NCBI GenBank assembly: GCA_963777165.1 | Contig: CAVZPO010000021.1 | Coordinates: 140,187-204,186, forward strand | Reading direction: 5' to 3' | DNA from: an uncultured Chloroflexia bacterium | GTDB taxonomy: Bacteria > Chloroflexota > Anaerolineae > Anaerolineales > E44-bin32 | Length of the DNA stretch: 64,000 nucleotides | Shown: piece by piece, positions 12,556 through 45,589 of the stretch | Layout: each line of letters starts with the position of its first letter | Position numbering within the stretch: position 1 is the stretch's first letter | Notes under the pieces: generated by a model | What the model saw: only the letters and a program-made list of their open reading frames with translations | What the model was told of the DNA's origin: nothing | Databases searched by the model: none | Position numbers and translations under genes: made by a program

Positions 12556-13722
12556 ATGCGCCGACTGTTCCGCCAAGTGCTCGCTTCCCTGGCCCCCCGG
12601 GTGGATCCCGACGAGAAGCCCTACCGCGTCCAGCTGGGGCGGGCGGCCGTCCGGGTCTCCCTGGTGCTGCTCAGCTGCTGGCTGCTGATCGAAATCCTGA
12701 TCGTGCAGCTGCTGCGGCCCGAGTCCGACCATGCCTGGCGCTACGACCTAGTGGCGATCCTCGTCCTGGCGGCGGTCCTGGCGGTGGCCGAAGGGTTCGT
12801 GCGCAAGGGGCGCACGACGGTCGTCGGGTACCTGCTGGCGATCAGCTTCTTCCTGTACCCGCTGGTGAATGCGTTTATCGTCCCAGGGGACATCTACCTG
12901 GTCAACGTCGCCTTCCTGATCTCGATTGTCGCCGCCGGCGCTATGGTCGGCGGCGGCCCGGCCTACCTGTTTGCCGGACTGACGACGCTGGCCAACGTCG
13001 GGACCTGGCTCTACGCCAGCGGCCATCCCGTGGCGCTGGTCCATCCCTTCGACCCGACGACCGGGGCGATCTTCCTGCTGAGCAACACCCTCGTGGCCGT
13101 GGCCCTGGCCGCGGTGCTGAACTTCTACTCCAGCTACATGCGGCGCAGCATCTCGGCTCTGAACGTGCAGGCCGAGCAGATGACCGAGCTGGCGCATACC
13201 GATCCGATGACCGGGCTGGCCAACCGGCGCTGGCTGATGGAACAGCTCGGGCGTGAGTTCTCGCGCGCCCGGCGCTACCGGCGGCCGCTCAGTCTGCTCT
13301 ATCTCGACCTCGACGGGTTCAAGGCGATCAACGACCGCTTCGGCCACCTGTTCGGCGACGAGGTGCTCACCGGGGCCGGGCGGGCGATGAAGTCCGTGCT
13401 GCGCTCGACCGACTTGCTGGCGCGCATCGGCGGAGACGAGTTCGTCGTCCTGCTTCCTGAGACCGGGATCGAGGGCGCCCACAACGTAACCGCCAAACTG
13501 CGCAAGTCGCTCAACGCCTACGGCCAGCAGCTCGGCCCGGCGGTCCCGATGTTGTCGTTCTGCGCCGGCGTCAGCCAGCTCCATCCGGACAATTCCACGA
13601 TCGACGACATCCTGTCCCGCGCCGACGAAGCACAGTATCTGGCCAAGGGCACGGGCCCCGGGCACACCCGCTCCGAACGCGAACTCGTCGTCTCTCCGCC
13701 GCCTTCACCTTCGCCGGGGTAG
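12556..13722 (+). CDS. membrane-anchored diguanylate cyclase (GGDEF)
   Basis: About 190 aa of TM segments, then DPMTGLANRR...LDLDGFKAINDRFGHLFGDEVL...RIGGDEFVVLLPE. Confidence 0.85.
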   Translation: MRRLFRQVLASLAPRVDPDEKPYRVQLGRAAVRVSLVLLSCWLLIEILIVQLLRPESDHAWRYDLVAILVLAAVLAVAEGFVRKGRTTVVGYLLAISFFLYPLVNAFIVPGDIYLVNVAFLISIVAAGAMVGGGPAYLFAGLTTLANVGTWLYASGHPVALVHPFDPTTGAIFLLSNTLVAVALAAVLNFYSSYMRRSISALNVQAEQMTELAHTDPMTGLANRRWLMEQLGREFSRARRYRRPLSLLYLDLDGFKAINDRFGHLFGDEVLTGAGRAMKSVLRSTDLLARIGGDEFVVLLPETGIEGAHNVTAKLRKSLNAYGQQLGPAVPMLSFCAGVSQLHPDNSTIDDILSRADEAQYLAKGTGPGHTRSERELVVSPPPSPSPG

Positions 13723-13737
13723 GGCAGCACGAAGCGG

Positions 13738-13960
13738 TCAGCTTTCAGCCGTCAGCGATCAACGATCAGCGGTCGGAGGCTGGGTAGGACCGGTATCTGT
13801 TCCCATCGCATGTGGCAGGTGGCGGGTGGCAATTAGCCTAAAGCTCGGCGCCAGCTGTGTTCCCTGGTCGCCAACGGCCAATTGCCAGTGGCTGATTGCT
13901 GGCTGCTAATCGCTGCTTGCTTGTTGCGGATCGCTGACTGCTGATCGCTATTCGCTTCTT
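13738..13960. repeat. intergenic element made of inverted heptanucleotide-repeat arrays (copy 1)
   Basis: Left arm: 6 units of period 7 with TCAGC at 13738, 13745, 13752, (13759), 13766, (13773). Right arm: 13 units of period 7, each starting GC(T/C), at 13870...13954 (for example GCTGATT GCTGGCT GCTAATC GCTGACT GCTGATC). The arms are reverse complements in motif. Confidence 0.8.
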
Positions 13961-13977
13961 CCCAATCGAGGTGCCCC

Positions 13978-14403
13978 GTGGTCCACACCGGCCGAATACG
14001 CCTGAACACGCGTGGCAACGCCGATACTCACGACCTGACCGAACGGGTGGCGGAGGTCGTCGCCGAGTCGGGAGTCCATGCAGGCACGGCCACGGTCTTC
14101 ACCCCTTCCTCGACCAGCGCGCTGACGACCATCGAGTACGAGGACGGCGCGCTCGAAGACCTGCGCCGAGCGCTGAACGAGATCGCCTCGCCGGAACGTG
14201 AATACCGCCACAACCTGCGTTGGGGTGACGGGAACGGACATGCGCACCTGCGGGCGGCGCTCCTCGGTCCTTCGCTCAGCATCCCGGTCGTCGACGGGCG
14301 CCTCACGCTGGGCACCTGGCAGCAGGTGCTCTACCTCGATTTCGACGTCCGACCGCGGCAGCGAGAGATCCTGGTGCAGGTGGTGGGCGAGGCGCAGGGA
14401 TGA
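13978..14403 (+). CDS. YjbQ/UPF0047 family protein (secondary thiamine-phosphate synthase-like)
   Basis: 141 aa; TATVFTPSSTSALTTIEYEDGALEDL....GNGHAHLRAALLGPSLSIPV..G.L.LGTWQQV. Confidence 0.85.
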   Translation: MVHTGRIRLNTRGNADTHDLTERVAEVVAESGVHAGTATVFTPSSTSALTTIEYEDGALEDLRRALNEIASPEREYRHNLRWGDGNGHAHLRAALLGPSLSIPVVDGRLTLGTWQQVLYLDFDVRPRQREILVQVVGEAQG

Positions 14404-15913: not shown

Positions 15914-15969
15914 CGGCAAGGCGTTGCGCGGCTACCGGACAGGTGGTGGTCGACATGAAGAACGAAGAG

Positions 15970-15997
15970 CAGGCTCCGGCGCATGCGCCGGAGCCTG
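15970..15997. terminator. perfect 28-nt palindrome between convergent genes (possible bidirectional terminator)
   Basis: caggctccggcgca/tgcgccggagcctg read directly. It lies between the methyltransferase (+) and rubrerythrin (-) 3' ends. There is no U-tract. Confidence 0.45.
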
Positions 15998-16028
15998 CGG
16001 CCTTACGGGTCAAATCGCTGATTGGTCG

Positions 16029-30411: not shown

Positions 30412-30440
30412 TTGACCGCCCGACGCGGCGGCGCTATACT
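30412..30440 (+). promoter_or_regulatory. candidate sigma-70-type promoter of the thiamine operon
   Basis: TTGACC (30412-30417), 17-nt spacer, TATACT (30435-30440), immediately upstream of the TPP aptamer. Confidence 0.55.
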
Positions 30441-30454
30441 CGGGGACATCCAAC

Positions 30455-30550
30455 TTGCACGGGGAGCCCGGTGTGCCGGGCTGAGAGGAGGGCTGTCAGC
30501 CCTCGACCCGCGGAACCTGATCCGGGTAATGCCGGCGGAGGGAGCACGAC
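30455..30550 (+). promoter_or_regulatory. TPP (THI-box) riboswitch
   Basis: ACGGGGAGCCCGG..CCGGGCTGAGAGGAGGGC...GCCCTCGACCC..GGAACCTGATCCGGGTAATGCCGGCGGAGGGAG contains the conserved CUGAGA, ACCUGAUC.GG.UAAUGCC.GCG.AGGGA elements. Confidence 0.85.
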
Positions 30551-30589
30551 CATCTCGTCACCATCACCCTCCCCTGCACCCGGTGGAGG

Positions 30590-37766: not shown

Positions 37767-37857
37767 GCCGGCGATTATAACGGAGGGCTGCGAGGCGCGA
37801 AGCACAGAGCTGGTTGTCTTGACGCTCCTTGGGCGGGTCGTTATAATCCTCAAGCTT

Positions 37858-37931
37858 TCCTCGGTAGCTCAATAGGCAGAGCGGGCGGCTGTTAACCGCT
37901 AGGTTCCAGGTTCGAAGTCCTGGCCGAGGAG
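37858..37931 (+). tRNA. tRNA-Asn (GTT)
   Basis: Acceptor stem TCCTCGG/CCGAGGA; D-arm TAGCTCAATAGGCAGAGC; anticodon stem-loop GGCGG-CTGTTAA-CCGCT; T-arm CCAGGTTCGAAGTCCTGG. No encoded CCA. Confidence 0.9.
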
Positions 37932-43940: not shown

Positions 43941-44646
43941 ATGCCCACCCTGCCTACCGCGCCCGCCCGTGAACCGCCCCGATGGCTCCAGCGATTACAG
44001 GCGATCGACCTGCTTCGGTTGGCAGTCCACGTTGGCGCGCTGCTCCCGGCCGTGTGGATCCTTGCCGGATGGGTGAGTGGGGATCTGACCGCCAACCCGT
44101 ACCAGGCCGTCGAACAGCGAACCGGCAAGACGGCATTGATCCTGCTCGTCCTTTCGCTTGCGTGTTCACCAGTCAACCTGCTGTTTGGCTGGCGTGCGGT
44201 GCTGCGGCACCGCCGCACGCTGGGCTTGTACGCCTTCACCTACGCCGGGATACATCTCCTCGCCCTGGTCGGCCTCGACTACGGATTCGACTTCCGTCTG
44301 TTGCGCGCCGACCTGACGGGCAAGCCCTTCATCTGGGTGGGTGCCGCCGCGCTCTTGTTCCTGGCCGCCCTGGCCGCCACCTCCTTCCCGGCCTGGAAGA
44401 AGCGCATGGGCAAGAACTGGAAGCGGCTGCACCGCATGGCGTACCTCGCCGTCCTCCTGGTTGTGGTTCACTATGCATGGGCGCGCAAGGGAAACCTGAC
44501 CGCGCTGAGCGGGGACATTGTGCAGCCGGTTGCCTTCGGTGCCCTCGCCTGTCGTTCTGCTCCTGCTGCGCGTGCCGGCCGTCAAACGCTGGATCGCACA
44601 ACGTCGTGGGGCTGGCATGGAAGCGCGGGCGGGGGTCGGAAACTAG
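43941..44646 (+). pseudogene. msrQ: MsrQ (YedZ) heme-b membrane subunit, probable +1 frame shift at about 44550
   Basis: Ferric-reductase-like TM domain (RRTLGLYAFTYAGIHLL...HRMAYLAVLLVVVHY). After ...VAFGALA, frame 0 gives a non-hydrophobic tail. Frame +1 gives VVLLLLRVPAVKRWIAQRRGAGMEARAGVGN-stop, a last TM plus a basic tail. Confidence 0.7.
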
Positions 44647-44801
44647 CAGTCAGCAATTAGCAGTCAGCAACTAGCAACTAGCCATTTGCAGTTGGCGGGG
44701 GCCGTTGGCGACAAGATGTTCGTGAAGTGCTATGGGTAGCTGAAGGCCAGTAGCTCCTGGCTTGCAGCCAGCTGCTAGCCGCTGGTTGCTGGTTGCTTCC
44801 A
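44646..44801. repeat. intergenic element made of inverted heptanucleotide-repeat arrays (copy 2)
   Basis: Left arm, period 7 from 44646: GCAGTCA GCAATTA GCAGTCA GCAACTA GCAACTA GCCATTT GCAGTTG GCGGGG GCCGTTG GCGACAA. Right arm, period 7 from 44739: GCTGAAG GCCAGTA GCTCCTG GCTTGCA GCCAGCT GCTAGCC GCTGGTT GCTGGTT GCTTCCA. It shares a 34-40 nt block, including GCCGTTGGCGAC, with copy 1 in inverted orientation. Confidence 0.8.
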
Positions 44802-44881
44802 CCTGGCCTCGCCTCCCCCGGCTGACCTTGAACCCCCCGAACACACAGCTTATACTGGCGTCGGAGGCTGCAGATCTCGGA

Positions 44882-45589
44882 ATGCTACCCGCAACCCAAC
44901 GCCCCTCCGGCCGTGATGCCGTCAACCTGGTCATCCCGGCGCACAACGAAGCGGAGCATATCGCGGCCATCGTCCGAACGGCATTGCGCGCCTCGCTGGT
45001 GGGGCGCGTCATCCTGGTGGATGATGGCTCGACCGACGGGACGGCGGAAGCCGCAGCGGCCGCAGACCGCCGGCTCGAAGTGCTGCGCACGCAGGTTAAC
45101 CAGGGGAAAGCCGCCGCCTTGCTCCTCGGCATCCAGGCAGCCAACAGCGACCTGATCGCCTTTCTCGATGCCGACTTGATCGGCCTTCGCCCTGAGCATA
45201 TCGACGACCTGATCCGCCCAGTCCTGACGGGTGATTGCGACATGACACTCGGGCTGTTCCGGGGAGGCCGGCTTCGCACGGACCTGGCTCACCGCACAAC
45301 GCCTTACCTGAGCGGCCAGCGCTGCCTGCGCTGGGGGCCGTTTCGCGACACACCTCTTCTTGCAGACGCCCGCTATGGCGTCGAGGTCGCTCTCAGTTTG
45401 CATGCCCGCCGGCGCAGGCTGCGCGTCCGGTCCATTGTGTGGAATGGCGTCACGCATCTCACCCAGCCGGAAAAGCACGGCGCCGTGCGCGGCTACTTGT
45501 CCTATCTGCGCATGTACACCGAGATCCTGCTGTACCTGATCCGCCTCGGGCTTGAGCCCCTCGGTCGTCGAGGGCCTCGTCCTGCCTAG
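44882..45589 (+). CDS. family 2 glycosyltransferase
   Basis: VNLVIPAHNEAEHI......ILVDDGSTDGT......NQGKAAAL......IAFLDADL. The start is taken at ATG 44882, because the longer ORF from 44762 translates the repeat element. Confidence 0.7.
   Translation: MLPATQRPSGRDAVNLVIPAHNEAEHIAAIVRTALRASLVGRVILVDDGSTDGTAEAAAAADRRLEVLRTQVNQGKAAALLLGIQAANSDLIAFLDADLIGLRPEHIDDLIRPVLTGDCDMTLGLFRGGRLRTDLAHRTTPYLSGQRCLRWGPFRDTPLLADARYGVEVALSLHARRRRLRVRSIVWNGVTHLTQPEKHGAVRGYLSYLRMYTEILLYLIRLGLEPLGRRGPRPA

Follow-up and report, generated by a model that had tools for sequence, protein, structure and literature searches.

The window analysed here is a 64,000-nucleotide (64-kb) stretch of DNA from an uncultured Chloroflexia bacterium (contig CAVZPO010000021.1), and its subject is a repeat element that lies between msrQ and a downstream GT2 glycosyltransferase gene. 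At this locus msrP (PF00174) precedes msrQ, and the space that follows is occupied by two arrays of degenerate 7-nucleotide (nt) units, or heptads, which are one unit type read on opposite strands. We call this element copy 2, since an element of the same build, copy 1, follows a GGDEF gene elsewhere in the window (Table 1). We compared both copies with loci from relatives, whose contigs carry L numbers. The msrP-msrQ-GT2 loci are orthologous, and the percentages that we give for msrQ loci are identities of the MsrQ protein to that of the window. The named MsrQ and GGDEF homologues come from Anaerolineales/Chloroflexi metagenome-assembled genomes.

Table 1. Coordinates of the two heptad elements and of their neighbouring genes in the window
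Feature	Position	Strand	Description
GGDEF gene	12556-13722	+	TAG stop; copy 1 left arm begins 4 nt after it
Copy 1, whole element	13726-13956		build like copy 2
Copy 1, left arm	13726-13781	+	eight heptads, mostly AGCNNTC
Copy 1, centre	13782-13865	+	contains GCAGGTGGCGGGTGGCAATTAGC (~13817-13839), a near match to the post-msrQ array of L123
Copy 1, right arm	13866-13956	-	thirteen heptads
msrQ, heme-binding subunit of methionine sulfoxide reductase	43941-44646	+	PF01794 Ferric_reduct; homologues named MsrQ/YedZ
Copy 2, left arm	44645-44700	+	eight in-phase heptads, RGCRRYY type
Copy 2, centre/spacer	44701-44734	+	with the last left-arm units forms block TGCAGTTGGCGGGGGYCGTTGGCGACAWGRTGTTCGYGAARTGCT, kept in the 88% orthologue L125
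Copy 2, right arm	44735-44801	-	nine RGCRRYY-type heptads; GCTNNNN on the + strand from 44739
Sigma-70-like promoter of GT2 gene, TTGAAC-17-TATACT	44828-44856	+	directly past the right arm
GT2 glycosyltransferase gene	44882-45589	+	PF00535; true start ATG 44882

Copy 2 and its neighbours

The left arm of copy 2 reads, from 44645/44646, AGCAGTC, AGCAATT, AGCAGTC, AGCAACT, AGCAACT, AGCCATT, TGCAGTT and GGCGGGG, and it provides TAG stops in all three frames. On the plus strand from 44739, the right arm reads GCTGAAG, GCCAGTA, GCTCCTG, GCTTGCA, GCCAGCT, GCTAGCC, GCTGGTT, GCTGGTT and GCTTCCA. The arms are 34 nt apart, the msrQ stop falls within the first unit, and the right arm ends 80 nt before the GT2 start. 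The heptad arrays are AT-richer than the window, which has a G+C content of 66%. A preliminary description of this DNA had placed the element between msrQ and the GT2 gene, and its sequence re-reads as given there, with exact agreement on nine complementary-type units from 44739. Its count of ten left-arm units is generous because the phase is lost after GGCGGGG, which leaves eight units in phase. That the element follows msrQ holds with one correction, namely that the array also contains the msrQ stop codon.

The window msrQ carries one extra base (a +1 frameshift) near 44541 (44535-44545; gcctgtcgttctg in the window as compared to gccctcgttctg in L121), as judged from the DNA of L121 and from translations compared with a 91%-identical protein (P0001); with homologues of 91% identity, only 84% of the query is aligned. 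This base shifts the last ~36 codons and reflects either an error of sequencing or assembly or a frameshift that is real. With the frame corrected, the protein ends in ...AGVGN and its stop, TAG at 44644-44646, overlaps the first heptad, and the uncorrected frame stops at an in-phase TAG inside the array (44658-44660), 14 nt past the normal stop. On the other side of the element, GT2 orthologues are called as proteins of 235 amino acids, which corresponds to ATG 44882 and bears out the earlier suspicion that the open reading frame (ORF) from TTG 44762 has a spurious N-terminal extension; this start is an artefact that arises because the frame is open through the right arm.

In the 600 nt that we scanned for promoters, TTGAAC-17-TATACT was the sole promoter-like site (1 found as compared to 0.1 expected), and it is kept in the orthologous spacers of L121, L125 and L127. 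Copy 2 thus lies between the msrQ stop and a conserved GT2 promoter. The same promoter scan found TTGACC-17-TATACT just before a thiamine pyrophosphate (TPP) riboswitch and TTGACG-17-TATAAT just before a tRNA. Because these two near-consensus sites stand before known RNAs, promoters of the sigma-70 type are credible in this organism. The TPP riboswitch (RF00059, 66.6 bits) and the tRNA (RF00005), at 30412-30561 and 37819-37931 of the window, are each ~10 nt downstream of their promoter.

The array persists at the same gene ends and turns over in situ

To describe the repeat itself, we counted two patterns in the window. Three consecutive AGCRRYY units with no more than three mismatches gave 27 matches (1.9 expected), AGC at period 7 repeated five times with no more than two mismatches gave 24 matches (0.39 expected), and 48 of the 51 matches of both searches fall in the two element loci. 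When the window was compared with itself in a sliding scan, self-match peaks at periods 7, 14 and 21 appeared at these two loci only, and there were no peaks at periods 5, 6, 8 and 9. Across ~400 kb of related Chloroflexi loci, period-7 arrays occur at ~10 distinct places and arrays of period 5, 6, 8 or 9 almost never. From 171 units of the window and its relatives we obtained the consensus R-G-C-R-R-Y-Y, with 0.7, 1.2 and 1.2 bits of information at positions 1-3 and 0.2-0.4 bits at positions 4-7; that is, period 7 and the GC core are retained and the remaining unit positions drift. Tandem Repeats Finder (TRF) likewise reported period-7 matches of 61-70%, with heterogeneous units in which the RGC core alone is conserved; it also resolved copy 2 into 14-nt units (90% matches) and copy 1 into 21-nt units, and these higher-order periods are a signature of multi-unit slippage. 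Held against a strict definition of simple sequence repeats (SSRs), both copies have tandem 7-nt units in the number demanded, which is at least 4 (8 + 9 in copy 2 and 8 + 13 in copy 1), and the loci are polymorphic in unit number and sequence at the msrQ and GGDEF ends. The units fall short of near-perfect identity, and the arrays fit the 'heterogeneous' subclass of PMC4692102.

In the orthologous loci of L121/L124, L125, L208, L127, L128/L129 and L123, we found that the heptad array begins at the msrQ stop and that its units and length differ from locus to locus. In L121/L124 (92%), the left array has 13 units and the right arm has 6. In L125 (88%), the centre is shared with the window and the right arm is short. 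L208 (84%) has more than 25 units, mainly direct, L123 (79%) has a short array, L128/L129 (77-78%) have 10-16 direct units without a clear inverted arm, and in L127 (76%) the two arms abut. The array is absent after msrQ in L126 (81%) and in relatives below ~72%. At the same msrQ gene end in a distant clade (L157-L160, 51% MsrQ identity) there is an inverted array of another unit, GTAGACG. At the GGDEF end, arrays start from the stop in L205 (93%), L206 (88%) and L207 (89%), and there is no array in L204 (82%). These data show that, across a genus-level clade of Anaerolineae-type Chloroflexi, the array has stayed at the same gene end while its units have turned over in number and sequence and its inverted arm has come or gone. 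Since orthologues carry different units at the same gene ends, turnover has taken place in situ rather than by transposition, and the element is a fast-evolving element of the SSR type, not a transposed copy.

Inverted arrays of other units are found on further Anaerolineae-type contigs, with GTAGACG (L157:3574-3672, L160:797-937, L198:108-176), AGTAAWA (L146:5724-5836, L147, L200) and GCGTRAT (L182:2672-2868, L186:4237-4462) as units. Long ORFs end at an arm of similar elements in L206, L207, L146/L147 and L182/L186.

The arms of copy 1 are 84 nt apart and again carry one unit type on opposite strands. From the end of the right arm it is ~12 nt to a GAGGTG ribosome-binding site and 21 nt to the yjbQ/UPF0047 start codon, GTG at 13978; this closeness follows from a deletion specific to the lineage. 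In L206, a ~6-kb gene block on the minus strand (L206:5432-11414) stands between the GGDEF gene and yjbQ, and the heptad element sits between convergent genes. The flanking genes are convergent in L207 too, where only a crp-like remnant and a conserved TATACT are found between the element and yjbQ (L207:2215-2535). The window has lost ~320 nt more than L207, including the conserved TATACT upstream of yjbQ (window 13957-13977). The deletion relative to L207/L206 begins exactly at the outer edge of the copy 1 right arm, and the window yjbQ has no recognisable promoter of its own remaining. In the element centre of L206 (5590-5640) and L207 (2040-2085) there is a perfect GC-rich stem-loop, AACGGGCG-loop-CGCCCGTT, with a stem of 14-18 bp, which looks like the core of a bidirectional terminator; it is absent from the window copy 1. 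In L209 (2215-2385), the orthologous msrQ array is broken off after ~4 units by unrelated AT-richer DNA, and in L205 (2745-2798) the GGDEF-end contig terminates inside its array. From the endpoints in copy 1, L207, L209 and L205, we conclude that arrays coincide with rearrangement or assembly breakpoints.

The preliminary description had recognised that both loci share one architecture and that each is placed between co-directional genes, and it had matched a 40-nt block of copy 2 to the reverse complement of 13867-13900; in our alignment 29 of the 34 positions agree, with one 6-nt gap. It went on to propose a dispersed repeat family, which, if homologous or mobile copies are meant, our comparisons do not support. 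The best local alignment of copy 1 and copy 2 scores 54, as compared to 17.7 +/- 2.3 for plain shuffles and 39.2 +/- 5.5 for shuffles that preserve the heptad phase, of which 5 in 500 score as high. Against the window copies, Acidobacteriota, Bacteroidota and Cyanobacteria arrays reach 47-50. Judged by these alignments, the similarity between the copies is mostly what two arrays of one degenerate unit would show, and any excess is marginal at most. It comes close to the level of low-complexity sequence, at which the preliminary description had itself been ready to give up a family, and does not quite reach it.

A non-autonomous mobile element (MITE- or REPIN-like) with dispersed homologous copies would explain why two copies with inverted arms are present in 64 kb, why a 34-40-nt block is common to both at 85% identity, why the copy 1 centre matches the L123 array over ~23 nt and why the alignment score is slightly over the phase-preserving null. 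We nevertheless consider such an element very unlikely. The copies have no defined termini and no common sharp ends, no target-site duplication is evident by eye at the elements, and the copies are not near-identical, with a similarity that is within the range of arrays from other phyla. Both elements are also orthologously placed and diverge in situ, and the flanks differ as well in relatives without the element (L126, L204), so that an empty site cannot be defined. A score near the phase-preserving null, similarity mostly at the level of the unit and long-term residence of both elements all argue against a transposing family, and a MITE was rejected as the leading idea because copy 1 and copy 2 are only marginally above that null.

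A contingency (phase-variation) switch, in which the number of heptads tunes expression of the downstream GT2 gene, would suit a repeat that is placed just upstream of the GT2 promoter and varies in length between relatives, and GT2-type genes are often phase-variable in pathogens. The geometry makes this switch most improbable: the array is upstream of the -35 box, neither between the -35 and -10 boxes nor in the ORF. In addition, heterogeneous units suppress high-frequency slippage, and elements of this type are also found after unrelated genes (GGDEF and others).

Hairpin formation and candidate roles at the transcript 3' end

We favour the reading that copy 2 is a convergent pair of RGCRRYY arrays that turns over in situ and would fold into a hairpin where the msrPQ transcript ends, and for this reading as a whole our confidence is evenly balanced. 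Within it, the repeat class to which the element belongs is firmly assigned; the weaker part is the function of the hairpin at the 3' end, which we infer. Under this reading, arrays would lengthen and shorten by slippage in steps of 7, 14 or 21 nt, and the inverted partner array would arise from strand-switch copying. When the msrPQ transcript enters the element, the arms could pair into a long, imperfect and register-tolerant hairpin that starts from the stop codon. Such a hairpin would mark the 3' end of the operon, as a terminator or insulator that does without a U-tract, as a block to 3' exonucleases, or as both, and it would precede the independent GT2 promoter. A role as terminator or insulator had been suggested in the preliminary description, and we judge it to be reasonable.

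When folded as RNA, the 186 nt from 44630 to 44815 reach -80.1 kcal/mol with a 17-bp inner helix, and the copy 2 arms alone can form a hairpin of ~-56 kcal/mol. For copy 1 the fold reaches -110.8 kcal/mol (z = -3.8). In copies 1 and 2, L121, L125 and L127, folding favours the sense strand over the antisense strand by 2-24 kcal/mol, a margin that varies with the boundaries chosen; the sense strand has more G.U pairs and a keto skew of +0.06 to +0.165, as compared to ~0 in neighbouring genes. This bias fits a role at the RNA level.

Several results weigh against the hairpin reading. Compared with dinucleotide shuffles, the copy 2 fold has a z of only -1.8. When the right arm was shuffled within the heptad phase, the hairpin z was -0.2 for copy 2, +0.4 for L121, -0.06 for L125, +0.9 for L127 and -1.35 for copy 1; arm pairing in copy 2 and its orthologues is thus no better than in phase-preserving shuffles, and selection on specific pairs is not seen. 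RNAalifold, run on the only four alignable orthologues, gave a consensus of -15.8 kcal/mol with a covariation term of +1.94 (a penalty), and 3 of 27 pairs are changed on both sides. The lack of excess pairing led us to drop the claim of a specifically maintained hairpin: the pairing is real, yet it follows from the architecture, in which the same unit is inverted and pairs in any register. The G.U bias of the sense strand could also stem from transcription-linked C-to-T mutation. A scan of both loci for consensus terminators found a U-tract after neither hairpin (the sequence past the copy 2 right arm is CCACCTGGCC...). The long arrays of L128/L129 and L208 are mainly direct and show no clear inverted arm, and L126 is without an array. 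At copy 1, where the deletion has taken away the ancestral region upstream of yjbQ and the right arm now adjoins the yjbQ ribosome-binding site, an efficient terminator would silence yjbQ, and a strong terminator role is hard to reconcile with yjbQ expression.

A serious rival to the hairpin reading is that the arrays are a neutral by-product, in which polymerase slippage, reportedly with a preference for 7-nt units, makes heptanucleotide SSRs and template switching makes their inverted partners, and both are tolerated at operon boundaries as locally fragile DNA with no function in the cell. We regard this as possible but doubtful. It agrees with the quick gain, loss and length change of arrays among close relatives (none in L126 and L204), with the lack of excess arm complementarity in copy 2 and of covariation in the four orthologues, and with synteny breakpoints or deletion endpoints at the arrays of copy 1, L207 and L209. 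Heptanucleotides are also the commonest long SSRs in many prokaryotes, with slippage proposed as their source, according to the summaries in PMC4679880 and PMC4692102. However, neutral decay would erode all unit positions alike, and the units, although degenerate, keep a strict period of 7 and a GC core while positions 4-7 drift. Arrays also recur at the same two gene ends in the clade, with the GTAGACG unit at the msrQ end of the distant clade, a position near the stop codon and inverted pairing recur across phyla, and the bias towards sense-strand folding is consistent.

Like intrinsic (Rho-independent) terminators, the element of the hairpin reading is a hairpin right after a stop, at an operon end and before the next promoter. 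Unlike them, it has no U-tract, and its stem of ~55-60 nt per arm is AT-richer than the genome and has many mismatches. We rejected a canonical intrinsic terminator because the U-tract is missing at both loci. When we scanned three 20-kb blocks (1-60000) for hairpins followed by a U-tract and compared them with shuffles, such sites were not enriched in two blocks (12 vs 7.5 +/- 3.2 and 10 vs 8.8 +/- 3.1), and the middle block had an excess (20 vs 9.0 +/- 3.6). In the first 20 kb, we saw just one hairpin that convincingly resembles a canonical terminator, at 15969-15998 on the minus strand, a 13-bp GC-rich perfect palindrome (GCAGGCTCCGGCGC ATGC GCCGGAGCCTGC) followed by a T-rich tail. At the gathering score of Rfam 15, only the TPP riboswitch and the tRNA match in the window, and at E <= 10 the copy 2 region has only spurious microRNA and long non-coding RNA (H19) matches. 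The earlier suggestion of a small RNA finds no internal promoter, no Rfam match and, among the four alignable orthologues, no conserved structure in its favour, and a small RNA gene was rejected because there is no promoter inside the element on either strand.

Relation to known heptamer arrays

The element is a Chloroflexi case of a known class, that of degenerate heptad arrays which lie at the 3' ends of genes and often form convergent pairs. The best-described members are the ~185 (GGGANTN)n heptamer arrays per Xanthomonas genome, in which unit positions 1-4 and 6 are conserved (Rehm et al., 2015; PMC4692102). Of these GGGAATC/(GGGANTN)n arrays, 70-75 are present as convergent opposite-strand pairs. 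The arrays have ~4-26 units and are ~90% intergenic, mostly between co-directional genes and next to or overlapping the upstream stop, with mean distances of 28 nt to the upstream and 160 nt to the downstream ORF. They keep the same gene context in two species with variable length and are mostly transcribed, and the authors raised termination as a possible role without settling it (PMC4692102). The window element is like them in its degenerate heptad with fixed and variable positions, its opposite-strand pairs, its proximity to stop codons and its conserved place with variable length. Both window copies consist of close opposite-strand arrays of one unit, near the upstream stop and farther from the downstream gene, copy 1 being only 21 nt from yjbQ after the deletion. 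In contrast to the arrays of Xanthomonas, which belongs to the Gammaproteobacteria, the element has a Chloroflexi host. The unit differs as well: RGCRRYY has no G-tracts and the window units have no in-phase GGG runs, so that a G-quadruplex is impossible, and we rejected this reading.

Long heptanucleotide SSRs are a second point of comparison. Heptanucleotides were reported as the most abundant long SSRs in many prokaryotes (Mrazek et al., 2007, as summarised in PMC4679880 and PMC4692102), and the short tandemly repeated repetitive (STRR) sequences of Calothrix PCC 7601 are cyanobacterial heptanucleotides (as cited in PMC4692102). The window element shares with them a period of 7, a tandem and mainly intergenic arrangement, a scattered phylogenetic distribution and an attribution to slippage. 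It differs in its heterogeneous units and inverted pairs, since the long SSRs and STRR are, as far as these summaries describe them, mostly near-perfect direct arrays. The TAACTGA repeats of marine Beggiatoaceae, cyanobacteria and Bacteroidetes (MacGregor, 2015; PMC4679880) are also intergenic heptamers with stops in every frame; some of them reach into the end of the preceding ORF, there are 'split' sets with variant units, and an RNA-level role is suspected. Unlike the window element, TAACTGA sets have 2-6 units, are nearly always direct (with one inverted case) and lie just upstream of starts. For other heptamers, a Nostoc preprint describes modest regulatory effects (bioRxiv 10.1101/2022.06.06.494920). 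REP/BIME/REPIN and MITE families resemble the element in being intergenic, hairpin-forming, multi-copy and often at gene 3' ends. However, they consist of homologous copies with fixed sequence and ends that are mobilised by a transposase (RAYT or IS), and the window copies share only unit type and architecture.

To look beyond the Chloroflexi, we scanned a genome collection for AGC at period 7 repeated six times and found at least 120 loci in many phyla, a sample that is incomplete and AGC-biased. Because the scan selected on AGC, the conservation of AGC is uninformative and only the other positions count. Among the matches listed, there are near-perfect repeats and 44 degenerate arrays, 18 of which are AGCNNTY as compared to ~12% expected, and many have a forward array, a spacer and an inverted array, with a long ORF often ending at an arm. 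The ending of ORFs in arrays is partly trivial because the units carry stops in all frames. The same build is present, among the matches listed, in L001 and L030 (Acidobacteriota), L018 and L113 (Verrucomicrobiota), L067 (Rubrobacteraceae), L117 and L118 (Pyrinomonadaceae), L069 (Gammaproteobacteria) and L013 (Anaerolineales, with the unit GAGCGTA). Overall, we met such arrays in Chloroflexi, Acidobacteriota, Verrucomicrobiota, Bacteroidota, Gemmatimonadota, Rubrobacteria, Gammaproteobacteria and Cyanobacteria. An identical perfect (AGCACTC)n repeat is found in L011, L028, L044, L068, L101 and L110, which represent six phyla or classes, several times at contig ends; its recurrence could reflect a favoured repeat or contamination or an assembly artefact.

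Stop-anchored inverted arrays of degenerate heptads could represent one functional class across phyla, serving as a 3'-end signal without a U-tract or as a landing pad for a factor that reads 7 nt at a time on RNA or DNA, with the core selected and the other positions free, but we think this rather improbable. A further rival to the hairpin reading is a periodic binding array, in which an oligomeric protein, such as one of the cold-shock or OB-fold type that binds ~7 nt per domain, would recognise the core at each 7 nt on RNA or on single- or double-stranded DNA and the hairpin would be secondary. RGC is indeed conserved by position, with variable positions separating one core from the next at a strict period; L128, L129 and L208 retain arrays that have no clear inverted arm; and the excess of AGCNNTY among the AGC-selected degenerate arrays points the same way. 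An unidentified binding protein has also been speculated for the TAACTGA repeats (PMC4679880) and for the Nostoc heptamers (bioRxiv 10.1101/2022.06.06.494920). We consider a binding array unlikely: the units differ completely between related lineages (GTAGACG, AGTAAWA, GCGTRAT and RGCRRYY), which means that there is no common binding site, no candidate protein is linked to the loci, and GC-anchored units re-pair and duplicate, which can alone yield a conserved core.

For annotation, the element accounts for the 40 spurious codons at the N-terminal end of the GT2 ORF, masks where msrQ really ends and coincides with assembly breaks and rearrangement endpoints in related contigs. It adds the Chloroflexi, and a unit that does not form G-quadruplexes, to a little-studied class of 3'-end heptamer arrays. 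Because this unit is unable to form a G-quadruplex, we argue that G-quadruplex formation does not define the class. If such arrays turn out to be 3'-end signals in GC-rich phyla that appear to be poor in canonical terminators, as in two of our three 20-kb blocks, they may be useful for operon prediction.

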